A stretch of DNA of 64,000 nucleotides. Source: a virus (taxonomy: Duplodnaviria > Caudoviricetes). The stretch lies in IMG/VR virus record IMGVR_UViG_3300014043_000154, positions 1,262 through 65,261 of that record; one strand, 5' to 3'. Below, one piece after another: positions 5,020 through 61,386 of this stretch (its first letter is position 1; every line of letters starts with the position of its first letter). A program made the position numbers and the translations under genes. A model generated the notes under the pieces. The model searched no databases and had not been told where the DNA came from. It saw only the letters and a list, made by a program, of their open reading frames with translations.

Positions 5020-6028
5020 TGTTCATACCCTCCACATTTGGTACCGGGATATTATGCTCTGCGCAGAACCATCTCAGGCACTCGTGACACATGAATCCCA
5101 TTGTCGTGTTCCTTGTCCCCCGTCCGGATCTGGCGGACAGGGTGACCATTTCTTTTTTTGGACGGTGAGCACCGCATATCATGCAGTGGTCCCACCGTTT
5201 GTCTTTAATTGCCTGTGTAGCAATGTTTTTCTTCCCGACGTATTGAGCAAGCTGTTGCGGATATTCTTCCCGGAAATCGTCCACCAGAGCCCTCACGGAC
5301 TCCTTCATGAACACCGGGGCTTTCGTCCAGTGACAGATCTCGTCTATCCACTCACTCTGAACTGCCGGCTTGCCTTTCCTGTTACCCGTCTCCGCTCCGA
5401 TAATCAGCCATTCATAAATGCTGATATCCGTAAGGGACAACCTGTCCAGTCTTTCATGGAGAGGTTCGATGCTTGCGAATATCCTTAACCTATCTGCGAT
5501 CTCCATCATAATGAGAGACCGGCTCTGCACATCCTTGTTGCTCGTGAGCGTCACCCCGTAGTAGAAGTTGTCACCATCAGGGAGGTCTAACTGCGTATAA
5601 CGGAACGGGTTCTTCGTCAGGAAAATGTAGTTGTTCATCTCGTTCCCGGTCGCTTCCACGACCTCGCTTATCACCCAGTCAGGCACCCATTTTCCGAACA
5701 GGTCTGCCAGCGCTCCGACAAAGATATTGTGTCCGCCCTTCAGTTGTTCTATCGCTTTCAGCCGATACCGGTGAAACGTCGGTTCGAATCCAAAGGGATA
5801 ATTGATGATCTCGCCGTTCGGACCATGGAACTGTTCATCGAGGACGTATATCCCGTCAACAATCCTGTACTTATCTGTGTGCGTCAGATTTTCCCGGATA
5901 TCTCCGGAGAACCTGGTGATGAGTTTCTTGGCGTAACAGTACGGGCAGTCATGCTTGCATCCTGTGATTGGGTTGAATGTGTGGTCGCACCACGGAATCT
6001 TGCTTCTGTTCATGTTCATCCTCCTCAA
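5012..6028 (-). CDS. DUF5131 / Gp37-Gp68 family radical-SAM-like protein
   Basis: SKIPWCDHTFNPITGCKHDCPYCYA (CxxxCxxC), FLTKNP, SIEPL, WLIIGAETG. Confidence 0.85.
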   Translation of the reverse strand: MRRMNMNRSKIPWCDHTFNPITGCKHDCPYCYAKKLITRFSGDIRENLTHTDKYRIVDGIYVLDEQFHGPNGEIINYPFGFEPTFHRYRLKAIEQLKGGHNIFVGALADLFGKWVPDWVISEVVEATGNEMNNYIFLTKNPFRYTQLDLPDGDNFYYGVTLTSNKDVQSRSLIMMEIADRLRIFASIEPLHERLDRLSLTDISIYEWLIIGAETGNRKGKPAVQSEWIDEICHWTKAPVFMKESVRALVDDFREEYPQQLAQYVGKKNIATQAIKDKRWDHCMICGAHRPKKEMVTLSARSGRGTRNTTMGFMCHECLRWFCAEHNIPVPNVEGMNNG

Positions 6029-8178
6029 CCTGCAGCTGATTCACTTAAATCGACATCCGGCTCCACATCCATAAAATCTGCTTCCAGAACATCCACAAGG
6101 AGTTTTCCTGCAAGCACTCCGTGCCAGATCTTGTTACCGTTTTTCCGAAGTTCCTTGAATTCCTCTTCACGGAGCACCGCGCTTTTGGACTGCAGTTCGA
6201 TGTCCTTCTTGCTCAGCCGTTTCTTTATCGCTTTCTGCCACTCCCTGATGAACGACACCGCTTCCTTAAAATCTGCGTTCTGCCGGTCTCCGGTTGTCCT
6301 TTTCTGCCTTGTTGCTCCGCCAGGCTCAATTTCAAGGGTGTAATATGGGATGTCGGGAGCATCGGCCTTGCGAAGGAAAACGATGAAGGATTCCCTTCTC
6401 TCGATTCTCGAGAAATAAATGTCTGACCGATGCAGGCAGTGTTCCAGAGCGATTCCCTCTTCAATGATGTCCTTTATCCCATCAGGGCATACGATGCAGT
6501 ACGTTTCATTCCGGTATTCATACTTCGCCTTGATCTCAGTGCAGATCTCATTGACATTCGGGAACTTTGACAAAATCTCGAGTTCACGTTTTGCCAGTGC
6601 CGCGCCGCCGGAGATCTTGACCATTTCATCATGCGCAGCCCTCAGATTTTTCGGTCTGTACACGTACTCGCTCTTTACGTTCCGCTTCATGTAGGCCGCC
6701 ATGGCCAGATAATCGCTCCATGTGCTGACCATCTCCGTGTAACTCCTGTCATAATGCTCGTCTTCCATCTGGCGCTTCATGAAATTGACGATCTGCTCAT
6801 AACTCATGCGGTCATCGATAAAACTGAATGTGTCTTCCTTGAAGGAATATTTAATCAGGAATTTAATGACAGCCTGATTGGATGACTCGCCTCGCTTGAA
6901 GAAGATCCTCATCCAGTGGTATTCATCCACGTCACCGTTCGTGCTCTTCAGCAGCTCAAAGTCTTCCTTCGTGATGCCAAGCCTCTTCCATGGCGTGCCG
7001 TGGTCTTCCGCAAATCCTCCGATATGATTTGCAAGATTCGTCATTCCCATCTTTGCCAAAAACTCGAGTTCGGGCATGGACTCATACCGATGCAGGTAAT
7101 TCAATGGTGAGAATCCCCTGACTCCGATCATCCTGTCTACGGCACTGTACTGGTACTTTGTCCCTGCCACGAGATCGGGTATGAATGTTACCGGATAAAT
7201 CTTTGTGTTTACCGGTGATGTATGGTACCATCCGTCACCATACTGTGACTTGTTCCAAGATCCTCCGTAGTTGTATCTCCAATAACAGATCTCGTGACCG
7301 TTCCGAATAATCCTTCGTTTCTTCTCAAACACTGATATCTTGAGTTCTTCATCAAACTTCGTGACCGAATCAATTGCGTACAGCCGCTCGACGAAGCCAC
7401 CGTAAGGATGCCTCTGGAACAGGATTGCGTGATTGTCCCTTCCGACAACGACATCGTATCGATTGCCATTCGCCTTATAATCGCTCCTCCTGACGTTGCA
7501 CTCGGTTCCACATTCCGGGCAAATGGTCTTCTTGTCCTTGACATCACCCTTCAGGATCGTGACTTCATTACCGCAGTGTGAGCATGTACCCTTCGTGTGT
7601 TTGTTCTTACGGAAAGGGATGATCGTCATGTAGTGAATGGGTTCGAACTCCTTCGCTAACCAATCGCGGAATCCAGCAGGTTCCGGCGGTATCTTATCCA
7701 TCTCTTCTTGGATTACCCGGTTCTTTCTTTCTTCACTTTCAAAATACTTCTTGCTCTGAAGGATGCTCTCTGCATCAGAGAACATGCACATTTCATCTGC
7801 AACATATTCGAGACGCGGCCAATACTTGAGGACGAATGTCCTGATTACCTTCCTCATCTCGTCGGAGATCTTCACCGGAAGATTCGTGTAGGAGCCTTTC
7901 TTTTTTGCAAAATTAACGCCGCTATAGGAATAGACGCTCGCCATCTTGTAGCACCAGTGTGCTTCGTTCTTAACGGCTAGTGTTGATCCTTCCGGGAAAT
8001 ATGTGGCGTACTCATTCTGGCTCAGGCAGAAGCGAACGGCAGGTTTCGTGTTCGAAACATCGACCACCAGCGTCTCCTGCTTCTTCCCCTTTGCCGGCAG
8101 GACCATTGCACTTATCATGCATTCATTCTTGCTTGCGGGAGCGAGCCATGCGATCTGCTCTATCTCTTTCCTTCTCAT
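6025..8178 (-). CDS. PcfJ domain-containing protein
   Basis: DYL.MA, PKNLRAAHD, EEGIALEHC, FLRK..PD.PYYTLEI. Confidence 0.85.
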   Translation of the reverse strand: MRRKEIEQIAWLAPASKNECMISAMVLPAKGKKQETLVVDVSNTKPAVRFCLSQNEYATYFPEGSTLAVKNEAHWCYKMASVYSYSGVNFAKKKGSYTNLPVKISDEMRKVIRTFVLKYWPRLEYVADEMCMFSDAESILQSKKYFESEERKNRVIQEEMDKIPPEPAGFRDWLAKEFEPIHYMTIIPFRKNKHTKGTCSHCGNEVTILKGDVKDKKTICPECGTECNVRRSDYKANGNRYDVVVGRDNHAILFQRHPYGGFVERLYAIDSVTKFDEELKISVFEKKRRIIRNGHEICYWRYNYGGSWNKSQYGDGWYHTSPVNTKIYPVTFIPDLVAGTKYQYSAVDRMIGVRGFSPLNYLHRYESMPELEFLAKMGMTNLANHIGGFAEDHGTPWKRLGITKEDFELLKSTNGDVDEYHWMRIFFKRGESSNQAVIKFLIKYSFKEDTFSFIDDRMSYEQIVNFMKRQMEDEHYDRSYTEMVSTWSDYLAMAAYMKRNVKSEYVYRPKNLRAAHDEMVKISGGAALAKRELEILSKFPNVNEICTEIKAKYEYRNETYCIVCPDGIKDIIEEGIALEHCLHRSDIYFSRIERRESFIVFLRKADAPDIPYYTLEIEPGGATRQKRTTGDRQNADFKEAVSFIREWQKAIKKRLSKKDIELQSKSAVLREEEFKELRKNGNKIWHGVLAGKLLVDVLEADFMDVEPDVDLSESAAG

Positions 8179-8723
8179 TTGGCTCCCTCCTTTATGTGGT
8201 ATGTGGTGTATGGTCTATACTTGACCCCGTCGATCTTGAACATCGATATACGTACAATCTTTCTGCTGTCCTCTTCCTCTTTCAGAAGAGCTATGATATC
8301 GCCCTTTCTCCCGGAAGCTCCCGGATGCTTGCCTCTTACGATCTTCATTCCGAAGAATCCCTCGGCCGATGAAGCATGCTCACGCTTCACATAGCCGTTC
8401 TCCTTCATCATCGGGTTCTTGATCATGTAGTCGCACGCAGCTATCACGAATTCCTCTTTTGAGAGTTCCTTTGCAAGCAGCATTCTCGTGCAGGAGATCT
8501 TCGTATCGTCACCGGATTCATTGATATCACCGTCAGCTATGACCTGGTAATAGACCGACTTATCCCAATTTGGGTAGTATGAGAGACAGTCAAGAGGATC
8601 TTCAGCGCAGTGCAGGCCGTTCTTAAAACAGTTGGCTTCCTCTTCTGTGTTCCAGTCGTCCAGCTTGAATTTGTACCCCTTGCATGTGAGATCTGGATTG
8701 AATCCTTTGTAAGCAATAAGCAT
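8175..8723 (-). CDS. Conserved phage protein (AYKGFNPDLTCKGY family)
   Basis: YKGF..DLTC.GY.F and GLHCAE.PLDCLSYY motifs. Confidence 0.7.
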   Translation of the reverse strand: MLIAYKGFNPDLTCKGYKFKLDDWNTEEEANCFKNGLHCAEDPLDCLSYYPNWDKSVYYQVIADGDINESGDDTKISCTRMLLAKELSKEEFVIAACDYMIKNPMMKENGYVKREHASSAEGFFGMKIVRGKHPGASGRKGDIIALLKEEEDSRKIVRISMFKIDGVKYRPYTTYHIKEGAK

Positions 8724-10252
8724 CAGAACCCACCTCCCATGAAGTCGAACAGGCTCATCTGTCCTTCGAACTCGTCTTTCTTCTTCGGCTTTGGCTTCTG
8801 CTCCTTCTTTTCTTCCTGCCCCTTCGGTTTCTTGGCCTTCATGTACTCCGCCTTTGTAATACTCTCAGCGTCTTTGAGCGCATCTTCCGTCGGCATCGGA
8901 GTTCCCTTCTCGACCATCCAGTACAGGTCACCTGACTTGTAATACAGGTCCTTCTTTGCAACGGCCGGCTTGTCCGGTTTCGGCATTTTGAGAACCTTGC
9001 TGTCCTTCTTCGGCTTTTCTGCTTTTTCTTCGGCTTTCGGCTTTGCTGCCTTCGGCTTATCCGCTTTGGGCTTCTCCTTCTTGTCTTCCTTAAGGTTGTC
9101 CGTCATGTAATAGTCGCGCGCCCACCCGATGAGCATCTCGGATGTGACAGGTACCGAGATCGGTTCCTCCCTGTTCCTTGCTTTCTCCCTCTGTTCCGCC
9201 GTCGGATTCGTCAGCTTCATGGCCTGGTTCGTGCAGTACATCATGTAATGCCCGAAGGTCTTTTCCTCTTTGAGGACAGCCGTGTCAAGTGCAGGATCTT
9301 TCTTGCACTCTTCTATCAGAGCCGAGAACAATAACTCATACTGCTGTTTCACGGCATCCGGTGCTCCCGGAGCAACGATCCCGATGTACTTGTTCTTTTC
9401 GTCTAAGAGACGATCTTCTCCTTTCGCATATGTCTTATCCATATCAATCTCTCCTACATAAAATGTGAATGTTGCTGTCTTCTTTTTCGGCTCCAGCATC
9501 TTCAGCACATCTTTGATGGCCTCAATCTTCCGAAGGGAATTCCATTTCTCTGCGAAGAACATCGTTGTGAACCACAACTCCTGTCCTTCCCTCTCGATCG
9601 GGCGGAGGACGCTCGGTCCTGTGCATGGATTCGTCAACGTATTGCCGACGCATACATATCCCGGAGCACCAAGGAGGCTCATCTGCACATAGCACATAAG
9701 TGCTGCTACTTCATCGATGTCCTGTGCCACGAAGACCGCTTCCGTCTGGTAGTTGATGCCATGCCTCCTCAGTTCATTGATACCCGCTATCAGCGTTGCC
9801 CCCGCTCCGCATGCCGGATCCGAAATACTTATGTACGGCCTGTTGCGCATCTTTTCGATATCACCGTCTATGGTGATCTTCGCCATTGCGACGCAGACAT
9901 CGTACGGGGTGAAGAACTGTCCGTGCCAATGGGAGCCAAGATCGAGGTTCATATAAATCTTTCCGAGGAAGTCCTGGTCGGGATTAACCTCAAGAGCCAT
10001 GGTCACTACACCGAGCAGCTTGGCAGGAATGTCAACGCCCCCAAGCCTTTCAATACACCGGGAATACTCTTTTTCTCTTCTCTCGAAGTGATCCGGGTTA
10101 CGGTCGGTGGCGTTACTGATCGCGCACGCCCACGCCTTCATCAGGTCCGCCCAGACCTGCCACCTCTGGCGGCTGTAGCAAAGCTTCTGGAACAGGTCGA
10201 GGAACTCCTTCTCCGTCCCCATCAATTGCTTTTCTGCTGCTGTCCGTTTCAT
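8723..10252 (-). CDS. N6-methylase-like domain fused in frame to a PcfK-like domain
   Basis: GQFFTP, DPACGAGA, AQDID, GNTL; C-terminal half PcfK-like ending EGQMSLFDF; internal RBS+ATG at 9442. Confidence 0.75.
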   Translation of the reverse strand: MKRTAAEKQLMGTEKEFLDLFQKLCYSRQRWQVWADLMKAWACAISNATDRNPDHFERREKEYSRCIERLGGVDIPAKLLGVVTMALEVNPDQDFLGKIYMNLDLGSHWHGQFFTPYDVCVAMAKITIDGDIEKMRNRPYISISDPACGAGATLIAGINELRRHGINYQTEAVFVAQDIDEVAALMCYVQMSLLGAPGYVCVGNTLTNPCTGPSVLRPIEREGQELWFTTMFFAEKWNSLRKIEAIKDVLKMLEPKKKTATFTFYVGEIDMDKTYAKGEDRLLDEKNKYIGIVAPGAPDAVKQQYELLFSALIEECKKDPALDTAVLKEEKTFGHYMMYCTNQAMKLTNPTAEQREKARNREEPISVPVTSEMLIGWARDYYMTDNLKEDKKEKPKADKPKAAKPKAEEKAEKPKKDSKVLKMPKPDKPAVAKKDLYYKSGDLYWMVEKGTPMPTEDALKDAESITKAEYMKAKKPKGQEEKKEQKPKPKKKDEFEGQMSLFDFMGGGF

Positions 10253-11552: not shown

Positions 11553-14500
11553 TCAATCGTAGATAATCTTACTGCCCTCTTCCGCACTCTTGACGACCGT
11601 GAGGCTCTGCGAGAAGCGGGCTTTCATGGCCGGGTCGTGCGTGATGGCAATGATGCTGATACGCGGGTTCCTCTTCCTGATGGCCTCCATCGAATCGACA
11701 TAAGCCTGTGTGCCGTCCTCATCCAAGAACGGCGGCTCGTCGACGCCGAGGAACCCGATCTGGACACCCGAAGCCTCCATCTTGACTTCCGCGAGAGAGA
11801 GGTTGACTGCCAAAGAAGCTTTGACCTTCTCGCCTCCCGACTTGGATGTGTACGGGAGAGCTGTCTTGCCATACTCCTCGATGATGATGTCGAGCGTCGC
11901 TTTTTCGCCGTCGCGCCCCTTGACCGTCTTCTCCATCACGAAATCGACGCCCATCGTCCCTCCTGTCATGGCTCCGAGGATCCCGTTCGCCTTATCCCGG
12001 ATGTAAGGGATGATGTTCCGAATGATCTGGTGGGGGACCCCGTCCTGGCTGAATGCCGTCTTAAGGACTTCATACTTGGCCGCAAGGTCTGCAGCTTCAT
12101 CGATCCCCTTCCTGAGGCCTGCGATCTCTTCCCTCATGACCTTGATATCCTCGATCCTCTGCGTGGCAGCTCCCATCCGCATCCTGAGCGCGTCACCATT
12201 GCCCCGGAGGCTCTCTAAGTTCTTCTCCATTTCAGAAAGCATGACCCGTGAAGCATCCGGATCCTTCTCTGCAAGCAGAAGATCCAGCCTTTTTGACTCA
12301 GCTTCCAGTCTAGCCATCTCGGCACGCTTTGCTTCAAGGGATTCGTTGATCGTATTGGCGGCCACAAGGTCGGCCTCGTTCTTCGCACGCAGGGCAGGGA
12401 TGTCCTTTGCACACATTTTCGATGCTGCGCATTTCACGCAGACAAGCTTTGCCTCTTTCGTTCTTTTAACGGATTCAGCGAGCCTACTCACCGTTTCTGT
12501 GAGTTCTGAGCGTTCATATGCGCGTTTCTCGCGGATTTTCTGCTTTTCGTCGAGGGATTTTATCTTCTCGGCCACAGAAGCCATCAGCGAGGCAATCTGG
12601 ACGTTCTGTGAGGCAATCTGCGATGCCCGTTCCCTTGCCGGCGCGAGGCGTTTTACCTTTTCCTCGAGGTCAGGGATGTCCTCCGGAGAGAACCCGGTCG
12701 CTTTGATGCGGTCATTATATTCTTCGTTCAGCTGCTCCAGCGCAATCGCACATTTGGATTTAGAAGCTTCCTGATCCTTGATCTCCTGCTCGATGGCGGG
12801 GATGCCTGCGACATCTTCTTTCGCCTGAGACAGGAAGCGGCACCGGGCGTTCGCCGCATCGATGCATCCGGACCTTTCCATGAAGTCTTTCTGCCTGTTT
12901 GCCCCGGAAAGCTTCTGCCGCAGGAGTTCGATCCTGTTATCCGCCAATGAAATGAGCTTCGATACGTTCTTCGACCTGTGCTCCATTTCGTTCACCAAAG
13001 AGTAATAGTCGCCCTGCCTCTTCCGGGCTGCGGCAAGTTCGGCCTCGGCCGCTTCAAGCTCCCTGACCTTCCGTGCTACGTCTTCCGCATCGGCGGCTTC
13101 ACGTTCCATACGTTCGACATCAGCATTTGCCCGGTCAATCTCCGATGATGCGCTGGCGATCTCATTGTCCAGCGCGCCGATCTCGATACGCACATCCGCA
13201 AGTCTTTCATTAGCGGATTCATGTCTGGCGACATCCTGGGAAAGTTCCGCGATCGTGGCCATTGCCCTGTCATACGATTCCGCCTCGGCCTCGATCACGT
13301 CCGCATTGGCAAGCACTTCATTCCGTTTATCGATGGCCGCAGACAGGTCAAACGCCTTGACGGATTCACTGCAGATTTCATCGAACAGCGCTGATACCTT
13401 ACCTGTTATGTCGTCCAGCTTCGCTTTCAGGCTGTCCGCCTCATCAATATCCTTCCGCAGTTTTGTGATCTGCGCCGTAGTGCCTGAGATTTTGCCCTCA
13501 AGATCATTGATATTTCTTTCCAGCTCTGCGAGCTCGCTCTCCGGATCCCCTTTGTTTGCGATCTGCTGTTCCTTGACCTGTACGGCAGTCTTGCCGGAAG
13601 CGTAATCCCTTTTGGCCGCCGCCAGAAGGTCTCTGGCGCTCTTTTCCATCACCCCGTAGATCGAAAGGCCGAGCAGGTTCGAGAGGATCGCGATACGTTC
13701 ATCTTTCCGCGCTTCGAGGAAAAGCCCGTACTGGTCCTGCATGATGAGCGCGCATGTCTTGAACGTCATGTAATCCATTCCGAGGACATGTTCGATCTCT
13801 TTCTGCGTGTCCGCGCCTTTCTCAGAGGACATGTTCACCCATTCCCCGCCGGCATCCAGACGGGAGAGATTAACTGTTCCCTTACCGCTCTTCTGGCGGG
13901 TCCGCGTTACGCGGAACATGTGCTCGCCGATGGAGAAGGTGAATTCGATAAATCCGCTCCGGGCATCCGGCGCAGCTCTCAGCCACGCTTTAACATCGCC
14001 CTCTCTCGTCTTCTCGAACAGACAGTCCATCGGGGCATCGAAGAACAGGCTTGATTTGCCCGCTCCATTCACTCCATTGACTGACAGGAAGCTGATGTCT
14101 GTATAATCGAATTCCGCTTCCTTGTAGGCACGATAGTTCTTGACGGCGATCTTTACCGGCTTGAACTCGCCCTGGTACTCGTTCGCCTCGATCTGCTTCA
14201 GCGCCTCTCCGATGATGGGGGCTGCAAGATCTGCGACAGCTCCTGCATCCTTCACGCATTTCTCATCGAGCCACTTCTTGAGATTCTCATAAGGGTCTGA
14301 TTCCTCGTTCATGAGCCCGCGGTTCTGTACTTCTACCGTCTGCTCCGATTCGATATTCGCCACATAGAAGGCTCCCATCTCCATCAGGTCTGCTTGCAGG
14401 ACCGGGATGTTCAGCGCACGTTTCTGTGCATCATCGCATGTATACCGGAGGCGTACGATCTTTCCACCAAGAAGCTCTTTGTATCCCATTCCTACCATCA

Positions 14501-15383
14501 TGAACTGTCCATCCATGAGATAAGATGCAACATCATCAGGCTCCCAATTGAGCGTCTGGAACTGATTGTGCGGCGTAATAAAGAACTTAGACTCCCCCTC
14601 AGTGTCGTGGATCCAGAATCCCCTGACCTGTCCTTCATCATTGAAATTCAGAGCGTTGATTGCTCCAGCGTAGTAAACTCCGTCAAGGCCTTCCACTTTT
14701 TGCGGTCTGTGAACGTGTCCAAGAAGCGCATAATCGAACGCTGTTGCATTGAGGACTTCTCTCGGAAGCACAGGCTCAAAATTGGCATAGCAGCTTGTCT
14801 GGCCGGATTCGATGTTGCATCCTGGTACGGTGTAGTGCGCCATGAGGATGTTCTTCTCCCCGTTGCACTGTGCCCGAAGTCCGGAGACGATTGCTCCGAT
14901 TTGCTCTGTCCAGACCTGGTTCTCTTCATCTGCAGACAGCCCCGGGAACTTAGCCCGGAATTCCTGTTTGTCGAATCCCGGAACGACTGCGAAGTCTGCG
15001 ATCCTTGTTGCTATCACGCGCGGTTCTGTCACGACGATGACTCTGCGGTTCCCCTCCAGCATCTTCTCAAGCACACGGAACTGTCCGGCTCCGTCGTGGT
15101 TCGGTGTGCCCCTCATGACGATGACCAGCTTTGCCGTCTCAGCAAGCTCTGTGATGATCCTCGTTGCGGTCAGCATCTCATCGGAGTAGCGGACAGGTCC
15201 TACCTGCTCCTGATGGAAGATGTCGCCGGAGACACATACGATATCAGGATGCTGTGCTTTCGCAGTCTCGACCATGAATTCAAGACACTTTACAGTGGTC
15301 TTGTATCTAAGATTCATGCCGTCTTTATCGGCGGGACCTTTGAAGGGTCCCAGGTGCCAATCAGCAGTTTGCAATAATTTCAT
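11553..15383 (-). CDS. Single-chain SbcD(Mre11)-SbcC(Rad50) nuclease-ATPase fusion
   Basis: N-terminal TADWHLG, SGDIFH, GTPNHD, LGHVH phosphoesterase motifs; then GVNGAGKSS Walker A, coiled coil, KSGGEK signature, GVDEP Walker B, ITHD. Confidence 0.9.
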   Translation of the reverse strand: MKLLQTADWHLGPFKGPADKDGMNLRYKTTVKCLEFMVETAKAQHPDIVCVSGDIFHQEQVGPVRYSDEMLTATRIITELAETAKLVIVMRGTPNHDGAGQFRVLEKMLEGNRRVIVVTEPRVIATRIADFAVVPGFDKQEFRAKFPGLSADEENQVWTEQIGAIVSGLRAQCNGEKNILMAHYTVPGCNIESGQTSCYANFEPVLPREVLNATAFDYALLGHVHRPQKVEGLDGVYYAGAINALNFNDEGQVRGFWIHDTEGESKFFITPHNQFQTLNWEPDDVASYLMDGQFMMVGMGYKELLGGKIVRLRYTCDDAQKRALNIPVLQADLMEMGAFYVANIESEQTVEVQNRGLMNEESDPYENLKKWLDEKCVKDAGAVADLAAPIIGEALKQIEANEYQGEFKPVKIAVKNYRAYKEAEFDYTDISFLSVNGVNGAGKSSLFFDAPMDCLFEKTREGDVKAWLRAAPDARSGFIEFTFSIGEHMFRVTRTRQKSGKGTVNLSRLDAGGEWVNMSSEKGADTQKEIEHVLGMDYMTFKTCALIMQDQYGLFLEARKDERIAILSNLLGLSIYGVMEKSARDLLAAAKRDYASGKTAVQVKEQQIANKGDPESELAELERNINDLEGKISGTTAQITKLRKDIDEADSLKAKLDDITGKVSALFDEICSESVKAFDLSAAIDKRNEVLANADVIEAEAESYDRAMATIAELSQDVARHESANERLADVRIEIGALDNEIASASSEIDRANADVERMEREAADAEDVARKVRELEAAEAELAAARKRQGDYYSLVNEMEHRSKNVSKLISLADNRIELLRQKLSGANRQKDFMERSGCIDAANARCRFLSQAKEDVAGIPAIEQEIKDQEASKSKCAIALEQLNEEYNDRIKATGFSPEDIPDLEEKVKRLAPARERASQIASQNVQIASLMASVAEKIKSLDEKQKIREKRAYERSELTETVSRLAESVKRTKEAKLVCVKCAASKMCAKDIPALRAKNEADLVAANTINESLEAKRAEMARLEAESKRLDLLLAEKDPDASRVMLSEMEKNLESLRGNGDALRMRMGAATQRIEDIKVMREEIAGLRKGIDEAADLAAKYEVLKTAFSQDGVPHQIIRNIIPYIRDKANGILGAMTGGTMGVDFVMEKTVKGRDGEKATLDIIIEEYGKTALPYTSKSGGEKVKASLAVNLSLAEVKMEASGVQIGFLGVDEPPFLDEDGTQAYVDSMEAIRKRNPRISIIAITHDPAMKARFSQSLTVVKSAEEGSKIIYD

Positions 15384-15816
15384 GATTTTCCCTCGCTTTC
15401 TCACAAAGTTTCTTGAACTGGGGGAGAAGGAGCTTGTACTGGTCATCAGTCAGCCCGATGAAATCAAGTCCGTCTCCATCTCCTATGTCTGTCTCTCCTG
15501 CAATAATGATGTTGCCGAGGATCGGGCAGCCGTGGATGTCTGTCTGGTACAACCAGCAGCCAACAAGGTTGACTCTCTGCTGGTTGGCATAACCATCCTC
15601 ATCCACGAGCATATTCGGTCTGCATCTTCCGTTCTGCGGATATTCCGGATAAGCTCCAAGGCCTGTATAAAGTCTTACAGGCATTACGTGCTCGACCATT
15701 CTGCATCCATTTCCGATCATCCCGGTAAGGGCATCATGTCTTGTCTTCCAGTCTCCGGACGGATAATCCTCTGTCCGGAGTTCATTGTCTGTCGTGATAA
15801 CGATCACTTTGTTCAT
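15361..15816 (-). CDS. DUF3846-like protein
   Basis: MLVDEDG...NL.GC.LY....HG.PI.GNIII. Confidence 0.65.
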   Translation of the reverse strand: MNKVIVITTDNELRTEDYPSGDWKTRHDALTGMIGNGCRMVEHVMPVRLYTGLGAYPEYPQNGRCRPNMLVDEDGYANQQRVNLVGCWLYQTDIHGCPILGNIIIAGETDIGDGDGLDFIGLTDDQYKLLLPQFKKLCEKARENHEIIANC

Positions 15817-28191: not shown

Positions 28192-28440
28192 TCACGGCTC
28201 CACGAGCTCACCGAATGCCTCAGTGATAATTTCTTTGATTTTCTGCATGTCGGCCTTGATCTGCTCGGCACTCTCGGAAGACATCCTGTCATCTTTGAGC
28301 ATGGCAATCGTCCAGGCCTGACGAGTTATCATCCTCGACATTTGGGCAATGCACTCTGCCTGCTTTGCTGTCAGATCGTCATAATAAGACAGAAGTTCAA
28401 GCAGTTCGCCGTTCGTTTTATCCATAAGTGCTCCTTCCAT
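28192..28440 (-). CDS. Hypothetical coiled-coil protein
   Basis: ORF coupled to upstream gene. Confidence 0.55.
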   Translation of the reverse strand: MEGALMDKTNGELLELLSYYDDLTAKQAECIAQMSRMITRQAWTIAMLKDDRMSSESAEQIKADMQKIKEIITEAFGELVEP

Positions 28441-28856
28441 TAAAATATCCGATACCGAGGCTTCTCTTCACTGAAGAACCAGTATCGGACATAATCATCA
28501 AGTATTATAGCGACTCCTCCCAAGAGGAACCAAAGCGCCGTGAATTGCGGGCATATCTGGCCAAGTATATTGAATGGGAGATTGCTATAATCCCACACAT
28601 TAAGACCGAGATAAACATTCAGCACAATACCGCTTAAAAATTCGATCCACGTAATCGTGATACAGCATACGAGCATCTGCGTTGCGAGCGGAAGTTCCCA
28701 AGGGAAAAATTCGTTCAGAAGTCCGCAGAGGATGAACGCAATCCCCCCGACGAAGAACATGCTCCAATGAGACCGTCCGCGAAAGATATGCTCCAACATG
28801 CAGTACACAATCCCACCGACGCACAAAAGGAACACATATTTCAGCAGAGCTTTCAT
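28440..28856 (-). CDS. Membrane protein of the 'putative ABC transporter permease' family
   Basis: GRSHWSM..GG, IEFLSG, WDYS.LPFN..GQICP.F. Confidence 0.8.
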   Translation of the reverse strand: MKALLKYVFLLCVGGIVYCMLEHIFRGRSHWSMFFVGGIAFILCGLLNEFFPWELPLATQMLVCCITITWIEFLSGIVLNVYLGLNVWDYSNLPFNILGQICPQFTALWFLLGGVAIILDDYVRYWFFSEEKPRYRIF

Positions 28857-29539
28857 CCGACAGCCTCCTGATACAGGACCTTCAGAACGTCGCTCTGGTA
28901 CTGCTCCGGGATGGTATCACCATACGTTATAGCCGAGATTGTCGACGCCTTGCGGAGCGCCTTTATCCACTGGAATGCTGAGTTCGTGTACGTCGTGTGG
29001 AACGTCTTGAAAGCCATCGCCGCATTGATAATCAGCACGGCATCTGTAGCTGAATAAAAGCGGCACGGCTCCCCGTCAGAATGATACTCTACCTGCTCCA
29101 TTCCGGCTGCGAGCTGTGCCTGTTTGCCGAAAAGGTTCAGCTGATCTTCATCGGTCATCGAGAAATGTTTCACAGAACCGTCAGATAATGTGACGTCCAC
29201 GCCGGCGAAGATTGTCTCATTGCAGATCTGAGAGATCTCGGAGCGTTTTGCCGCACGCACAGATTCAATCTGCAGATAGTCTGCATTGATTCCCTCTTCT
29301 TTATCGGAAAGCTGTGAGAACCAGAACGCGATATCGTTCCTTATCTCTCTTTCTGCTACGCTTGCTGCTGTGACAATCGCAAATATCTCATCAGCTTCGT
29401 ATATCGTAACCTCAGCCCCCTCAGAATCAGTCATCACCCCTTCTGTCTGATTCTGGCGTATCCAGATCTGGGCTGTTCCGTCGGCCTGCACCATGTAAAG
29501 AAGGTCATCGAGCGGAGCCCCGCTGTTAACTTTATGCAT
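28853..29539 (-). CDS. DUF4376-like tail-associated protein
   Basis: HFS.TDEDQLNL, YHSDGEPCRFYS, HTTY.N. Confidence 0.65.
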   Translation of the reverse strand: MHKVNSGAPLDDLLYMVQADGTAQIWIRQNQTEGVMTDSEGAEVTIYEADEIFAIVTAASVAEREIRNDIAFWFSQLSDKEEGINADYLQIESVRAAKRSEISQICNETIFAGVDVTLSDGSVKHFSMTDEDQLNLFGKQAQLAAGMEQVEYHSDGEPCRFYSATDAVLIINAAMAFKTFHTTYTNSAFQWIKALRKASTISAITYGDTIPEQYQSDVLKVLYQEAVG

Positions 29540-30884
29540 AAGCTATCCTCCATAACTTATAATAATTTTTTTGTTGATATCCTTTACCCTTCTCGTAGTC
29601 GCTGACTATCTTTCGTGCTATCTTTACCAGACCATCGACATACCTCCGTCGGATCTGGTAACTGTTCGAACTCTTAAAACTGCCGTACTGCGCCGCCACG
29701 CCTCTGGCCAGCTTTATTGATACCTGCTCCCCTTTCCGGACTTTGCGGCTGAGCCTGTTCAGTTTCCTGCGGGCACGGAGAAAAATGCTGTCACGGATCG
29801 TGACCCATATCTTTTTATGCCGCTTCCTTGCCCCCGGGTACTGCTTCTCGCTCACAGCGCCTCCATGGAAGACAACGCCCATGAAATCAAGGTCCCTTCC
29901 CCTCCTCTTTCCATGCTTATCAAGATATGATGATCGGAATACGGACCAGTTGTCTTTGACCTTGACGCCGAGCTTCTCCCGGCAGTAATCAATGATCATC
30001 CGCACAGCTGTGTGGATGTCCTTCTTGTTAGGCCCATAGATGAGAATGTCATCCATGTATATCAGGATATGGGAGAAGAGGCGGACACGCTTTGTCTTTC
30101 CTCTTCTGGTCGATACCTTCGCAAGCCGCTCCGAGGCATAGTGGTAAAGGGTTGACAGGTAGTAATTACATAAATCCTTGCTTGCGGGAGAACCTATCAA
30201 AATTCCGGATTCAGCAGGGAACTTTGCATCCGGATCCGGGAATTCTTCATAAATCCCAACGATGGTGTGGATGAGGTACAGCATGTCAGCGTTCTTATGG
30301 ATATCCCTGTCGAGCATCGCAAGGAGCTTGTCATGGGGTATGGATGGATAGCATTTCGTGATATCCATCTTAGCCCCGAACTTTGTTCCTTCAACATCCC
30401 CTGACAGCCATTTCTTGACCGCCTTTATGCCGTAGCTCTGTCCCTTTCCCTTGATCGATGCGACCTGATACTCTCCGACCTTGGCCGTAAAGAGCGGGTC
30501 GGCAGCATACCGGAAAAGATTCTCGTAGATCTTCAGCATGGCGCATTCAATCCCCAGCGTACGCATCTTCCGCGAACCGCAGTCATTGATCGGCTCGTAC
30601 CGGATCACCTTCTGACCGACCAGGTTCTCCATAATGTGTTCCCGGACACGGCGCCTTGCGATGGCGTCTGATATCTCAAACGCCATCAGCTGCGCAGTTT
30701 CTTCGAGAAACGGGTCTCTTGGTTTCATATGTTCCTTCAAAAATCGGTTTGATTTCCCTGAAAACTTATGGAATATCCTTCTGGACCATGCTTTTCCGCA
30801 CTTGTTGCTGTCCATAAAATCCAGTATAGAGTCGACGATGAATCCAATATCGCGAATATTCACTTCCTTACAGTGTGTCTTCAT
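29532..30884 (-). CDS. DGR reverse transcriptase
   Basis: KMDITKCYPSI, GILIGSPASKDLCNYYL, YMDD, DFMG; adjacent TR/VR pair. Confidence 0.95.
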   Translation of the reverse strand: MKTHCKEVNIRDIGFIVDSILDFMDSNKCGKAWSRRIFHKFSGKSNRFLKEHMKPRDPFLEETAQLMAFEISDAIARRRVREHIMENLVGQKVIRYEPINDCGSRKMRTLGIECAMLKIYENLFRYAADPLFTAKVGEYQVASIKGKGQSYGIKAVKKWLSGDVEGTKFGAKMDITKCYPSIPHDKLLAMLDRDIHKNADMLYLIHTIVGIYEEFPDPDAKFPAESGILIGSPASKDLCNYYLSTLYHYASERLAKVSTRRGKTKRVRLFSHILIYMDDILIYGPNKKDIHTAVRMIIDYCREKLGVKVKDNWSVFRSSYLDKHGKRRGRDLDFMGVVFHGGAVSEKQYPGARKRHKKIWVTIRDSIFLRARRKLNRLSRKVRKGEQVSIKLARGVAAQYGSFKSSNSYQIRRRYVDGLVKIARKIVSDYEKGKGYQQKNYYKLWRIAYA

Positions 30885-31066
30885 AGATCCACCTTTCTTT
30901 CTGTATTCAAGGCCGTTCGGTTTTACTACTAGGTCCCACCCATGCCCACTACCGTCATGGGGCCGGCTTCCGGTTGCCCTTCGGCCAGTGCTGGTTCAGC
31001 AATTTTAAGCTCTGCTAAAGCCCATTCGGGGTGGAGTCAAGCCCCACGAAACATGACGCTCTGATA
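30885..31066 (-). ncRNA. DGR spacer RNA between TR and RT
   Basis: Non-coding, GC-rich, hairpin-containing; position equivalent to the Bordetella sp region. Confidence 0.55.
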
Positions 31067-31174
31067 CAGAAATACGGGCGGCATAGTTCCAGTTCGCGTT
31101 CGACAGAGCGTTGTTCACGTTGACATAGAAGCGCCCCGCGTTAGCCCCGTTGTTCAGGTTGCCGCCGACAAGGA
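31067..31174 (-). repeat. DGR template repeat (TR)
   Basis: 108 bp with 10 AAC codons; differs from VR only at adenines. Confidence 0.97.
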
Positions 31175-31233
31175 ACAGCCCGTCGCGTCATGAGTCCTTA
31201 TTGGGAGATACCGATTTTTAGTTCTTCAAAATT

Positions 31234-31286
31234 GTCCGCTTCGCGGGACTTGGAGGGGGAAAACCCCCTCTGCCGTCTGCGCGGCA
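31234..31286 (-). other. Hairpins downstream of VR/IMH
   Basis: CCGC-GAA-GCGG (31246-31236), GAGGGGG-TTTT-CCCCCTC (31270-31253), TGCCG-N6-CGGCA (31286-31271). Confidence 0.75.
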
Positions 31287-31294
31287 TTCACCCC

Positions 31295-32875
31295 CTAAGC
31301 GGCGGCTGCGCCGCACGCTCCCAGAGCAGAAAGACGGGCGGCAAAGGCCCAGTACGCGCCCGACAGAGCGTTGGCCACGGCGACATAGAAGCGCCCCGCG
31401 GAAGCCCCGTGGGACAGGGGGCCGCCGACAAGGACTTCTCTGACGCCATTCGTGGTTTCCGTGTTGTTGTTCATGCCATATGTATTGTCTGCATATCCCG
31501 TAGTCGAGGTAGCGTCCCTTTCGATCGGGAAGCGAACGAACGGATGATTTGCGTCATATCCCATTACCGAGATATAGCCGTTGTTGCCACCAATACCTGA
31601 TACCGTGTATGCGACTTCTGAGTAGTCCGCCGTAGGTGCGCTGGTCTTGATGTTCGCAGTATCGTAGGTGACATACATCTTACCAATTCCGGCCGTGATC
31701 TTATAGACAACATTAGACAGGACGATGTACTGTCCCCATGCGCACTCCACGCCGAAGAGCTTATACGGGTATTCTCCAGATGAGTTGCTTGCCGGCGATC
31801 CGCAGGACCCGAGAACGCCATCCGTCGCTCCGCTCCTCCACGGCATAGCGGAAATATAACACGCGGTAGTTGTGTTAAAAGTCTCTCCGCCAGTATCAAT
31901 GTAAATAGCGCTATTTCCGTTCCCAAGATCGGTGATCTGAGTGATCGGCTTACGGTCGACGATGTTATGCATATATGCATAGTTACGGTCAAGTTTCGTC
32001 GCGTCATCCGGAAGACCAACCGATACAATAGACCCGACTTTGAACTTGGCAGCCTGTGCATTCGTAACGATAACTCTTGACACCCCTGTCTCGCCTGCGG
32101 CCAGAGTGTGCTGCATGCTGTAAGAAGTACATCCCTTCATAATCGACTGGGTATCCCTTGTTGCAAAGGTCACAAGGAAGATCATGTTGAGGAACTCGTA
32201 CTCCTGTACCGTCTCCATCGCATACTGAGATCCTTTTGCAGCGGCTGTGGTTATATTGACATTATGCGACATATGATGCGCTATGTCTGCTCCGGATACG
32301 GACATCGGAACACCATTGTTGAGCGACGCGCCATAGCAGGCAATCGGGATGAAGTCTCGGACCGTTCCGTTCGGCTTGATCGCCGGTCCCACGGGCGCAT
32401 ATCCCGTCTTCCTCGACAGGCACAGGTCGATCTCTTCACCATTCGTGAAATCATACTTGAAGTACAGGGTCGGGAAGAGCATGTATGTATCTCTTGTTTC
32501 CCGGCTGAACTCCGCATCCGTATCAAAGTAATCGACGCAGAACTCTCCGGAGGAGTTCACATGGCCATTAACGATCATCCCATAGAAATATGTATCGAAG
32601 TCGTTCCGGGCAGCCGACTGGTCTGTCGACGGATACGCCACAAGGTTAGCTGCATTCTTTGTGCGGGTACCCGCAGAGAGGTTGGATGTGGCCCATGACG
32701 GCCAGCTTGCCCCGAATTCCAGATTCGCATAACGGCTCGCGCGTGTACGGAAGTAGTTTGCCGCGATCCGGGTCTTTGCAAGCTCATCCTGCCCGGATAC
32801 GACATTCAGGATATCCTGGACATAGGACAGGATAAGGTCCTGCCGCTCCCGCGAAGCTAAATAAATATCTGACAT
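31295..32875 (-). CDS. DGR target protein, putative receptor-binding protein with C-terminal CLec-type variable domain
   Basis: VR in last ~45 codons; VLVGG...GAS AGRFY...S.A...FAARLS pattern; located in tail-tip cluster. Confidence 0.9.
   Translation of the reverse strand: MSDIYLASRERQDLILSYVQDILNVVSGQDELAKTRIAANYFRTRASRYANLEFGASWPSWATSNLSAGTRTKNAANLVAYPSTDQSAARNDFDTYFYGMIVNGHVNSSGEFCVDYFDTDAEFSRETRDTYMLFPTLYFKYDFTNGEEIDLCLSRKTGYAPVGPAIKPNGTVRDFIPIACYGASLNNGVPMSVSGADIAHHMSHNVNITTAAAKGSQYAMETVQEYEFLNMIFLVTFATRDTQSIMKGCTSYSMQHTLAAGETGVSRVIVTNAQAAKFKVGSIVSVGLPDDATKLDRNYAYMHNIVDRKPITQITDLGNGNSAIYIDTGGETFNTTTACYISAMPWRSGATDGVLGSCGSPASNSSGEYPYKLFGVECAWGQYIVLSNVVYKITAGIGKMYVTYDTANIKTSAPTADYSEVAYTVSGIGGNNGYISVMGYDANHPFVRFPIERDATSTTGYADNTYGMNNNTETTNGVREVLVGGPLSHGASAGRFYVAVANALSGAYWAFAARLSALGACGAAAA
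31327..31434 (-). repeat. DGR variable repeat (VR)
   Basis: 18 substitutions vs TR, all at TR adenines. Confidence 0.97.
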
Positions 32876-59079: not shown

Positions 59080-59838
59080 TCATTCAATTCCGAGCGTTCG
59101 CTTTGCGTTCTCAGCGAGTTCACTGTCTATGGCTGCGATTTCTTCCCATCCGTTACCATGCGTCCACTGCCTTGCCGGCCATGGATGCGTTCCGCACAGA
59201 TATCCGTTATGCCATCCATAGATGGGCGGCATGTCCAGTCCATGGTAATGGATATATGCGAGGATGGCTTCATGTGGCCATTCGGACAGGGGGCTGTATC
59301 TGGTCACTCCCTCGTTCGCATTGGTATAGATATTCGTCCCCCGGCCTACAAAGTTCCCGTCTGCCTTTCGCCTGCCGAGCAGGATCATATCAAGGCTGTG
59401 CGCCTTATAATACTTCGCCTGGGCGCGGTGCTGAACGATATGGAACCACTGGGCTGCCTTCTGGCTCGTATCCGGGAAAAGCATTCCCATGTGCTTTTTC
59501 AGCCATTCGAGGTCCTGTCCCGTATTGATGATCTCACATCCTTCAGGGGCGTTCTCCCTTACCCATGAATCAAAGGCGGGGTATTCAAGGTTCGTTACGG
59601 CGATCATGCTCTCATGGATTCCGGCTTTCTCACAGATGTCCCCGAGGACGATGCTGTCCTTGCCTGCGCTCCACGCATATGCGGCATGCTTATCCCCCAC
59701 GGTAGCCTTGATTTCTTCAATCGTCTGGCCGACGAGCTCATCCAGCTCAGGACGGGTGACATATTCCTCGATATGCACCATGGCTTCAAGCCAGCTCAGG
59801 TTGTCGATGTTCTGTTTCCTTCCGAGGACTTTCTTCAT
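59080..59838 (-). CDS. Second PAPS-reductase-family (PP-loop) protein
   Basis: AWSAGKDS, LGRRKADG, SPLSEW.HE.ILAYI. Confidence 0.8.
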   Translation of the reverse strand: MKKVLGRKQNIDNLSWLEAMVHIEEYVTRPELDELVGQTIEEIKATVGDKHAAYAWSAGKDSIVLGDICEKAGIHESMIAVTNLEYPAFDSWVRENAPEGCEIINTGQDLEWLKKHMGMLFPDTSQKAAQWFHIVQHRAQAKYYKAHSLDMILLGRRKADGNFVGRGTNIYTNANEGVTRYSPLSEWPHEAILAYIHYHGLDMPPIYGWHNGYLCGTHPWPARQWTHGNGWEEIAAIDSELAENAKRTLGIE

Positions 59839-61244
59839 GCACTCACCTCCTGCCTGACCTTTGAAGCAGCTACCGCAATGATCCCGGAGATGAGCACTGT
59901 ATAAAGCGCAGCGCACGATTTCAGCACGGACAGGTTATTGATCGTCGCATATGCGAAAACAGGAAGTCCGGTCAAAAGAGAGACGCTGACACCTGCTACG
60001 ATTGCGCCTGCCCTCAGTTTCTTGCCGAGCAGTGTCATGACCGTCGGCAGGAGCGTGGTCGCTCTCAATGTTCCGTAGACAAGAAACATCTTCGTGACCG
60101 TCAGTCCAGGAATATTGGCGATTAATATGCCTACGACCAGCAGGCCGACCATGACACCCTTTGAGAACCGCATTTTTCCTGCATCATCTAACTTGCCGGT
60201 AACTTGCCAGTCTGTCGTAAGGGATGCCGCGGCACACAGATTACTGTCCACTGTCGAGAGCAATCCGCTCATCAGCATGAAGATGAACGGTACGACCACC
60301 CATGCCGGGAACAGATGCTGAATCAGTTCCAGATTGACCGTCCCTGTGTCCTGTGCTGTAAATCCCGAACCTGCAGCTATGAATCCGAGTATTCCCATAC
60401 TGAGCGGAACCAATCCGAACAGGAAGGCACCGAGCGCAAACGCACGCCCTATCTTCTTCTCGTCAATACTGAACGCCCTCTGCCAGAAGCACTGGTCTCC
60501 GAACGGACCGGAAACGAGCCCTATCGCAGTGGGAAGTCCAAATCCTATCAGAACCTCGATTCCCTTCCCGCTGAACAGACTGGCGTACTCACCAGATGCG
60601 CCTGTGAAGCCTCTCGTCATGTTTTCGATGCCGTGCGGGTTTCCCAATGCCCACGGGACAAAAACGGCGCATGCGGCCAATATGAGGACCATCTGAACGA
60701 CGTCCGTCATGACCGATGCGCGTATCCCTGAGAACTGCGAGTATGAATATGCGATGACCGCCAGCAGAACCGTGACAAGGGTAAAGTCAAGGCCTGTCGT
60801 TACGCTGAGTATCTTGCCCCCTGCAAGGAGCTGGACAGCGGTCGACAGGATCGTGAGGCCTGCGAGCTGGACACCGTAGACCTTACGTACGCCTTCGCTC
60901 CGGTATTCGTGCCCCATGAATCCCGAGAGCGTGATGCCGTCCGGCATCCTCTTACGGATGCGTTCCGCGAAGGGTATGAAGAACAGCAGGCATAAAACAT
61001 TCGGTACGAGGAACCAGAACAGGCCGGGCACACCATTGATATAGGCCTTTTCCGCAGAAGTGAAGAGCGCCGGCGCCCAGATCCATGTCGCTGCAATCGA
61101 CATGGCGGATGCCACAGCCCCCATCTTCCTGTTGCCGACATAGAAGTCATCGGCACCGTTCCCCTTCCGTGCAAAGAGTAATGTTGCGGCCATCATGACC
61201 GCGAAGTACACAAACAGCAGTATCAGTCCATTAAATCCATTCAT
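59835..61244 (-). CDS. Sodium:solute symporter family transporter
   Basis: DFYVGNR, SIAATWIWA, G.RASVMTD..Q, SGLLST.DS; about 13 TM segments. Confidence 0.88.
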   Translation of the reverse strand: MNGFNGLILLFVYFAVMMAATLLFARKGNGADDFYVGNRKMGAVASAMSIAATWIWAPALFTSAEKAYINGVPGLFWFLVPNVLCLLFFIPFAERIRKRMPDGITLSGFMGHEYRSEGVRKVYGVQLAGLTILSTAVQLLAGGKILSVTTGLDFTLVTVLLAVIAYSYSQFSGIRASVMTDVVQMVLILAACAVFVPWALGNPHGIENMTRGFTGASGEYASLFSGKGIEVLIGFGLPTAIGLVSGPFGDQCFWQRAFSIDEKKIGRAFALGAFLFGLVPLSMGILGFIAAGSGFTAQDTGTVNLELIQHLFPAWVVVPFIFMLMSGLLSTVDSNLCAAASLTTDWQVTGKLDDAGKMRFSKGVMVGLLVVGILIANIPGLTVTKMFLVYGTLRATTLLPTVMTLLGKKLRAGAIVAGVSVSLLTGLPVFAYATINNLSVLKSCAALYTVLISGIIAVAASKVRQEVSA

Positions 61245-61322
61245 TGATATTCTCCTTTTTTGATTTTCGAAGAAACACCCGGCCGTTGTGAATCCTGCCT
61301 CCTTCCCACGGTATGAATGGAA

Positions 61323-61386
61323 AAGCCCCCGGGGGATACCCAGGGGCTTCATGGCAATGACGTGATTTTGCTTTTTTAGCATATCA
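61323..61386 (-). promoter_or_regulatory. Extended -10 promoter and leader hairpin of the symporter operon
   Basis: TGATATGCT (61386-61378); AAGCCCC/GGGGCTT hairpin at 61323-61349. Confidence 0.5.

Follow-up and report, generated by a model that had tools for sequence, protein, structure and literature searches.

Since Wu et al. 2017 it has been asked how reverse transcription is primed and confined in diversity-generating retroelements (DGRs) that lack the accessory protein Avd, and this open question is raised directly by a locus in a Caudoviricetes virus, IMG/VR record IMGVR_UViG_3300014043_000154. The window analysed here is the whole stretch of 64,000 nucleotides (nt) from positions 1,262 to 65,261 of that record, nearly the entire 65,261-bp sequence, whose completeness is rated 100%. 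All coordinates refer to the window and all cassette elements lie on the minus strand, where the order from 5' to 3' is a target open reading frame (ORF) with the variable repeat (VR) at its 3' end, 152 nt of non-coding DNA, the template repeat (TR), a 182-nt spacer and the ORF of a reverse transcriptase (RT). We read this arrangement as a functional Avd-less DGR in the tail module of a complete siphovirus-type phage of about 65 kb whose relatives are prophages of gut Lachnospiraceae, and we place the probability of this reading at about 90%. The elements of the cassette are the following.

31295-32875, minus strand: target gene (variable protein), 526 amino acids (aa); ORF, family matches and structure model
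31327-31434, minus strand: VR, 108 nt, codons 481-516 of 526; direct repeat with mismatches at TR adenines
31067-31174, minus strand: TR, 108 nt; direct repeat, conservation among relatives
30885-31066, minus strand: spacer RNA between TR and RT, 182 nt; comparative RNA structure
29532-30884, minus strand: DGR reverse transcriptase, 450 aa; RVT_1, phrog_1423 and structure model

The TR/VR pair is the top direct repeat of the region, with 83% identity, and each of its 18 mismatches stands at a TR adenine (nine A>C, five A>G and four A>T), the TR holding 23 adenines and the VR five. The probability that 18 random mismatches would all fall on 23 adenines among 108 positions is 2.4e-16. There are 10 in-frame AAC codons in the TR, all TR-to-VR changes are at codon positions 1 or 2, and the 12 diversified codons (10 AAC and two TAT) allow about 9e12 possible protein variants by the genetic code. 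An earlier note, made from the letters of this stretch, had reported the coordinates, the 108-bp repeats, 18 mismatches all at adenines (18 of 23 changed) and the 10 AAC codons, and every one of these counts was correct on recount. Only one TR and one VR are present in the complete 65,261-bp record. Related loci were found by the exact TR pattern and by RT protein and RT alignment searches; a megablast of the cassette against GenBank phages returned no close DNA relative, and a search of viral contigs with the target protein returned no related loci. The RT belongs to a clade of enzymes of about 450 aa, named the SK clade after the motif described below. All 22 clade members with enough flank share the compact layout (VR, 110-180 nt, a TR of 106-113 nt, 174-195 nt, RT) together with strongly A-biased TR/VR mismatches, and the A-specific pattern recurs in more than 40 related loci.

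The RT matches RVT_1 (E 6e-12) and phrog_1423 (E 3e-54) and its catalytic YMDD is intact at residues 276-279. The RT of phage BPP-1 (bRT, 8ub7) is its sole sequence match in the PDB. The RT model (predicted local distance difference test, pLDDT, 90) likewise has the active state of bRT as its best structural match, with Z 30.1, 324 of 328 residues aligned and a root-mean-square deviation (rmsd) of 2.9 Å, and group II intron RTs rank below it at Z of about 24. The enzyme has an isoelectric point (pI) of 9.9 and a basic C-terminal patch at residues 351-385 or so, with 15 lysines or arginines per 40 residues; such a patch has been described for DGR RTs. This structural proximity to bRT, the A-specific TR/VR differences and the target's fold, of the C-type lectin (CLec) kind, support the identity of the locus as a DGR.

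Evidence of activity comes from natural populations. The closest 90%-identity target cluster has 56 members from independent assemblies, and 16 sequences of 526 aa, the window protein and 15 cluster members, were compared. These are about 98% identical outside the VR. Among the 51 columns that vary, the only ones with four to nine residue types are 486, 488, 489, 492, 497, 499, 501, 502, 506, 508, 510 and 511, and these 12 hypervariable residues correspond to 12 of the 13 TR codons that contain adenine. Outside the VR the 16 sequences display only bi- or tri-allelic lineage polymorphism, and the VR is unique to each of them. Because 16 near-identical proteins all carry different VRs, diversification outpaces ordinary divergence in exactly this lineage. 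A nucleotide-level comparison of TR and VR was made in sister lineages rather than in the 98%-identical cluster members. Across four sister-phage groups the TR has 0-2 variable sites and the VR 18-25, of which 16-22 are at TR adenines. Two of these groups have no variable TR site; their 3-4 distinct VRs vary at 21-23 sites, TR adenines accounting for 21-22, and the 1000 nt upstream of the VR in the same two groups hold 5-23 variable sites (5 in the cleanest group). In one relative, whose whole cassette is about 75% identical and whose TR is 97% identical to that of the window, 15 A sites and two C-to-T changes distinguish the VR from the relative's own TR. Judged from these assembled sequences, A-specific VR variation over an invariant TR is the signature of ongoing mutagenic retrohoming. 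The earlier note had named this same pattern as the sign of an active element, and it was found here on assemblies rather than on reads. The RT, the TR, the helices of the spacer and the flank of the VR are each intact and visibly constrained, and the literature describes DGRs as common and active in the gut environment.

Rare non-adenine changes beside mutated adenines were also observed, in the related locus L007 (2137-2244 versus 2404-2511) and in cluster members P0068 and P0073. Two AAC codons of L007 are altered at the C as well (to ACT and ATT), one cluster member carries L487P, and another carries Y497A, which requires a T-to-G change. Some 90%-identity clusters of related targets and RTs are very large (P0014 with 296 members, P0120 with 556, P0139 with 309 and P0154 with 488), which indicates that this DGR-bearing phage group is abundant in public gut metagenomes.

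The protein that is diversified matches phrog_17147 (E 1e-92) and phrog_5302, annotated as 'tail protein', and a Pfam search of it returned no match, the Mtd family included. Its AlphaFold model (pLDDT 91) consists of N-terminal helices and a TaqVP-like CLec fold with the VR at the C-terminus. TaqVP of Thermus aquaticus (PDB 5vf4) is by far the best structural match (Foldseek E 1e-7). It aligns to the target model (VIA) over residues 27-519 with Z 22.4, 296 aligned residues, an rmsd of 4.4 Å and 16% identity, whereas Mtd aligns over the CLec part only, with Z 8.3-8.8 and 12-13% identity. The model also matches viral models of the TvpA-like and FGE-like types, as well as many 'tail collar fiber' models of BFVD. 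A beta-barrel domain is inserted in the CLec fold at residues 252-349 or so (31829-32122, minus strand), where many independent beta-barrel matches with Z 6-9 are confined to residues 252-349. The CLec fold anticipated by the earlier note is therefore what structure prediction returns (TaqVP Z 22.4, Mtd Z about 8.5). The gene sits between Tal and the lysis genes, and some homologues are fused to an N-terminal BppU_N baseplate-anchoring domain. Because of this gene position, the tail-protein and tail-fibre matches and the BppU_N-fused homologues, the target is best read as a ligand-binding protein of the distal tail or baseplate in a temperate siphophage of Lachnospiraceae. The more specific proposals of the earlier note, a tail-tip location and tropism switching, would draw on the same gene position, PHROG and BFVD tail-fibre matches and BppU_N fusions.

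A PF05635 profile search of the complete phage record returned no Avd match even at E 10, and Pfam and NCBIfam scans of the neighbouring proteins found no Avd. Neither the 152 nt between VR and TR nor the 182 nt between TR and RT leaves room for a gene, which is also true of 22 of 22 clade members, and the small ORFs nearby, in contrast to the basic Avd, encode acidic (pI 4.1-5.1) or multi-pass membrane proteins. An Avd-like domain fused to the RT was ruled out, for the 324 of 328 bRT residues align across model residues 1-425; the roughly 120 residues that the RT has in excess of bRT are dispersed insertions and one C-terminal helix. The avd gene is present in about 74% of DGRs and is not defining. 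Wu et al. 2017 (PMC5758913) document DGRs without it (Architecture A, 29% of DGRs, and Lineage 3, which lacks avd) and likewise report no trans-encoded avd for them. The earlier note had invoked mutagenic retrohoming as established for BPP-1; its identification of a DGR stands, and since the cassette has no Avd the BPP-1 mechanism holds by analogy only.

A second departure from bRT lies in motif 4, which reads IGSPASK at residues 230-236. The IGSPAS portion aligns to IGSLTS of bRT and agrees with the core (I/V/L)G-x3-S that in DGR RTs stands where other RTs have QGxxxSP, but the terminal Q of the SQ dipeptide is replaced by K (K236). Lysine ends motif 4 in all of the approximately 59 clusters that make up the clade of about 450 aa, even at 42% identity, while shorter, more distant RTs keep Q. 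The Q of the SQ dipeptide is conserved in about 90% of DGR RTs and hence is not strictly defining (PMC3521204). The DiGReF survey lists the motif-4 deviations SP, SH, NQ, PA, AQ and VQ, SK not being among them, and a full-text literature search for an IGxxxSK motif yielded nothing relevant. In bRT the motif-4 Q contacts the incoming deoxynucleoside triphosphate (dNTP; cryo-EM preprint), and the substitution Q187P leaves the adenine misincorporation frequency unchanged. RTs of the SK clade were found in genomes of Blautia, Jingyaoa and other Lachnospiraceae. Extra Pfam domains are annotated in two longer homologues of the clade (P0156, 661 aa, and P0161, 618 aa): one has DNA polymerase III beta-clamp domains and the other Amidase_2 with SH3. 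These may be either real fusions or joins made by gene calling or assembly.

Comparative analysis of the region between TR and RT revealed a structured RNA. An RNAalifold alignment of 12 distinct clade members, running from the TR 3' end through the RT start, gave a consensus of 44 pairs in 8 helices, 24 of the pairs with compensatory double changes. In these helices 94% of cells are paired, against 37-50% in controls with the partners slid, and the covariation score is 0.52 against about 0.1 with the partners slid, a score reached by none of 500 shuffles. No Rfam family matches the TR-spacer region. A single-sequence fold of TR and spacer was no better than shuffles (z +0.6), so the structure is visible only comparatively. 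Its parts are the following.

31185-31192 (5' arm) and 31052-31059 (3' arm), minus strand: clamp bracketing the TR; covarying helix
31066-31072 (TR 3' end, UUUCUGU) and 30898-30904 (3' arm, ACAGAAA), minus strand: helix H1; consensus fold
31031-31047, minus strand: hairpin H2; covariation model
31021-31030, minus strand: hairpin H3; covariation model
31005-31019, minus strand: hairpin H4; covariation model
30963-30988, minus strand: hairpins H5/H6; covariation model
30939-30961, minus strand: hairpin H7; covariation model
30909-30937, minus strand: hairpin H8, with an invariant 17-nt loop; covariation model

In the clamp, spacer positions 8-15 pair with a segment that lies 11-18 nt upstream of the TR. 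This helix has 9 pairs, 6 of them with compensatory double changes, 92% of cells paired and four sequence versions. H1 is 95% paired with one covarying pair (UA/CG/AU), and its spacer heptamer ends in an A (30898) that is followed by an invariant G (30897). The helix leaves an invariant TR adenine, just past the GC run, as the first unpaired template base. By analogy with BPP-1, the A at 30898 beside the invariant G is a candidate cis-priming site. The spacer motifs, together with a 10-mer that follows the target stop codon, are found in all SK-clade loci and are largely absent from the neighbouring SQ clade, which has the same compact layout.

The 3' end of the VR and the DNA beyond it carry further elements.

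31327-31342, minus strand: putative equivalent of the initiation of mutagenic homing (IMH) site, the VR 3' end, last 16 nt or so of the repeat; fixed TR/VR difference
31297-31320, minus strand: VR-proximal GC-rich hairpin; fold energy and relatives
31253-31295, minus strand: conserved post-stop block; 10-mer and two hairpins
31236-31246, minus strand: CCGC-GAA-GCGG hairpin; 81 nt past the VR, with a short T run after it

The end of the repeat consists of a GC run, a fixed C where the TR has A, and then TTTCTG. In keeping with its predicted place beside H1 as the first unpaired template base, the adenine in question (TR position 101) passes into the VR in no lineage: a fixed C stands there throughout, and codon 515 is invariant in the 16 members despite the A in its TR codon. 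The position therefore behaves as an IMH/IMH* difference, and by analogy the VR end may serve as the IMH. The VR-proximal hairpin starts 6 nt past the VR, ends at the stop codon and folds with -16.4 kcal/mol. Of 10 relatives, 8 have an equivalent with a different stem sequence and a fold energy of -12 to -17 kcal/mol, and the other two a weaker one; the loops (GCA, AGA, GAAA, CAAG and others) are not all GRNA. The target-recognition hairpin of Guo 2011 is GC-rich, lies 4-34 bp downstream and has a GRNA loop (PMC3240598); the present hairpin fits that position rule but not the loop consensus, and is by analogy a candidate target-recognition hairpin or cruciform. The GC-rich segment that the earlier note had called IMH-like does exist, but it is more aptly taken as this hairpin, and the candidate IMH equivalent lies inside the repeat end.

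The CCGC-GAA-GCGG hairpin, which the same note had counted with the DGR, is also present as described, but its distance of 81 nt from the VR and its distribution (equivalents in 6 of 10 relatives, absent in 4) speak against a DGR element. A terminator of the target gene is the likelier identity, rather than a conserved part of the DGR; a terminator scan of 30850-31350 did not call it, and the terminator reading is accordingly tentative. Directly 3' of the target stop codon stands the 10-mer GGGGGTGAAT (31286-31295, minus strand), invariant in all SK-clade loci covering the region (L007-L037 and L086-L095) although the RTs are only 42% identical. It is accompanied by a covarying hairpin at 31271-31286 and a GAGGGGG-loop-CCCCCTC hairpin at 31253-31270. 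The 10-mer may work either at the DNA level, as a target-site signal, or as an element of RNA. In an RNAalifold analysis of the VR 3' flank 5 of 24 pairs covary and the covariation term is about 0; a pairing of the VR end with GGGGGTGAAT was considered and found unsupported, as it depends on invariant G-U pairs.

From these parts a mechanism can be proposed. The RNA would start some 20-30 nt upstream of the TR and run into the RT leader. Its fold would comprise the TR-bracketing clamp, the six hairpins of the spacer and a duplex in which the 3' ends of TR and spacer pair. This duplex would present an adenosine as cis-primer, from which the basic, enlarged RT may begin the cDNA at the A past the GC run without Avd. 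The RT would misincorporate opposite template adenines and halt at the clamp, and the cDNA would then replace the VR by way of the IMH-like GC-rich end, the hairpin next to it and homology farther upstream. We tentatively extend the proposal to the whole group, at slightly less than even odds: the IGxxxSK RT clade of Lachnospiraceae phages may be a mechanistically distinct, Avd-independent lineage in which an undescribed RNA of about 210 nt and an enlarged basic RT take over the positioning role of Avd. In this clade the RNA family, the 10-mer behind the VR and the replacement of Q by K at a residue that contacts the dNTP strictly co-occur, and they are largely absent from the neighbouring SQ clade.

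Several observations weigh on the other side. H1 has a single covarying pair and is otherwise mostly invariant; it also overlaps sequence that may be conserved for VR homology and for the ribosome-binding region of the RT. The priming adenosine, the cDNA start and the cDNA stop are analogies to BPP-1. A consensus promoter scan gave no promoter upstream of the TR, nothing being called in 30850-31350, so the transcript start proposed above is a predicted one. We infer ongoing activity in the individual genome of the window from its 98%-identical population rather than from reads of its own sample. An Avd too divergent for PF05635 or supplied by the host would also count against an Avd-independent element. 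In that case the locus would be a canonical DGR that depends on an unrecognised Avd, either strongly diverged or supplied by a gene of the host or of another prophage. bRT requires Avd in vitro (PMC6182149, cryo-EM preprint), Avd proteins are described as poorly conserved (PMC5758913), and the search made here was a profile search with inspection of neighbours. Such an Avd is nevertheless improbable, given a record rated 100% complete without a PF05635 signal at E 10, gaps too short for a gene in 22 of 22 members, small neighbours that are acidic or membrane proteins, and the statement of Wu et al. that trans-encoded avd was not found; dependence of a phage on a host-encoded Avd would also be unusual.

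A single genome cannot display ongoing activity, and the cassette might be an intact relic that no longer homes in the window genome and has inherited its VR pattern from an active ancestor. The constraint on the RT, TR, spacer helices and VR flank, all of them intact, and the 16 proteins of about 98% identity, all with different VRs, make this very improbable. A chance or recombinational duplication unrelated to reverse transcription, for which nothing speaks beyond the existence of a repeat, is negligible beside the P value of 2.4e-16, the same pattern in more than 40 related loci and the adjacent RT. It is unlikely, to a lesser degree, that the DGR is active and its variable protein does not set host range, binding instead some other changing ligand, for example gut glycans or mucus, a co-receptor that serves for reversible attachment alone, or a component of host defence. 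The main candidate for host specificity is the neighbouring 1830-aa Tal with its collagen and BppU-like parts, the target has no recognised virion-anchoring domain (though homologues carry BppU_N), and the literature knows DGR targets outside tail fibres, such as head decoration and defence-linked genes. The position of the gene between Tal and the lysis genes, its PHROG 'tail protein' and BFVD 'tail collar fiber' matches and its BppU_N-fused relatives point instead to a tail protein. A functional Avd-less DGR, acting probably on a distal tail protein, is the reading that we retain.

Avd-less, CLec-targeting, phage-borne DGRs are a known kind, to which the SK motif and the covariation-supported RNA are the additions made here. 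With the BPP-1 DGR (mtd-avd-TR-brt) the cassette shares the placement of the VR at the C-terminus of a CLec fold encoded by a phage tail gene, a transfer from TR to VR that is specific to adenines, an RT closest in structure to bRT (Z 30.1), a GC-rich repeat end followed by a hairpin beside the stop codon, and a TR-RT spacer RNA with a duplex of TR 3' end and spacer that ends in A-G. The BPP-1 duplex TR118-129:Sp47-56, with A56/G57, resembles the predicted H1, BPP-1 initiation lying three nt past the GC stretch, and the 'cPRT Stop' duplex of BPP-1 joins sequence upstream and downstream of the TR as the clamp does here. Unlike BPP-1, the present phage lacks Avd, its RT is 122 aa longer and carries IGxxxSK instead of IGxxxSQ, its IMH-like zone differs from the TR by only 1-2 nt, its predicted first template base is A rather than G, its spacer has six hairpins and no sequence similarity, and its target is TaqVP-like rather than Mtd-like (Mtd Z about 8.5).

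Architecture A1/Lineage 3 of Wu et al. 2017 (PMC5758913) agrees in the order target-TR-RT, the absence of an accessory gene, a single adjacent target, few non-A substitutions and phage association, while neither an RNA model nor the motif-4 K variant is described there. TaqVP is alike in its C-terminal VR on a CLec fold and in matching nearly the whole target, but it is a cellular and not a virion protein, and the window protein adds the beta-barrel insert and the N-terminal helices. The 'GuFi' gut Lachnospiraceae phages (bioRxiv 10.64898/2026.01.26.701711) share the ecological setting, the host family, tail-fibre-type targets and within-population non-synonymous variation in the last 100 bp or so of the targets. 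Surveys of the GuFi type give incidence and pN/pS (non-synonymous to synonymous polymorphism) and no RT motif, Avd status or RNA structure.

The genome around the cassette is that of a tail module. The DGR follows the tape measure (PhageMin_Tail), Dit (Sipho_tail) and the 1830-aa Tal (Prophage_tail, collagen, BppU-like_C) and precedes a holin-like gene and a 749-aa endolysin. The RT stop codon lies within an 8-nt overlap with the ORF of a 228-aa DUF4376 protein (28853-29539, minus strand), behind which comes a 138-aa, PF06541-like multi-pass membrane protein (28440-28856, minus strand). The DUF4376 ORF follows the RT in 41 of 42 SK-clade loci and the 138-aa ORF is present in 38 of 42. Conservation of the DUF4376 protein (55%) exceeds that of the RT and the target, and the genes upstream of the target are not conserved. 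This synteny indicates that the DGR moves as one unit together with the beginning of the lysis module. Both ORFs were considered as new accessory factors and judged improbable in that role, the 228-aa protein for its pI of 4.4 and its tail-fibre PHROG and DUF4376 matches, the 138-aa protein as a multi-pass membrane protein of the lysis module; shared phage ancestry explains their synteny more simply than an accessory role.

Elsewhere in the window, a Metallophos nuclease domain precedes AAA_23/SMC_N in a single 1297-aa ORF (11553-15446, minus strand), whose one polypeptide thereby resembles an SbcD-SbcC pair. Adjacent large ORFs at 6025-10252 (minus strand) carry domains of the PcfJ-like and the PcfK-like type, and an N6 DNA methylase domain is fused to the PcfK-like one; the two Pcf families are associated with plasmid conjugation and occur here in a phage early region. 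A gene of the sodium:solute symporter family (59835-61382, minus strand; PF00474, E 5e-21) adjoins the packaging region.

The cassette is a clean and complete natural Avd-less DGR with direct population evidence of its activity, having one TR, one VR and 12 diversified codons. The RNA analysis of Handa et al. covered only Avd-containing DGRs, and the clamp, H1 with its A-G, the H8 loop and K236 offer testable elements that make Avd-independent retrohoming experimentally approachable. As a compact cassette of two components, RT and RNA, it would also be of interest for DGR-based tools of targeted mutagenesis. For the phage itself the outcome is probably a changing ligand or receptor specificity of its distal tail protein.

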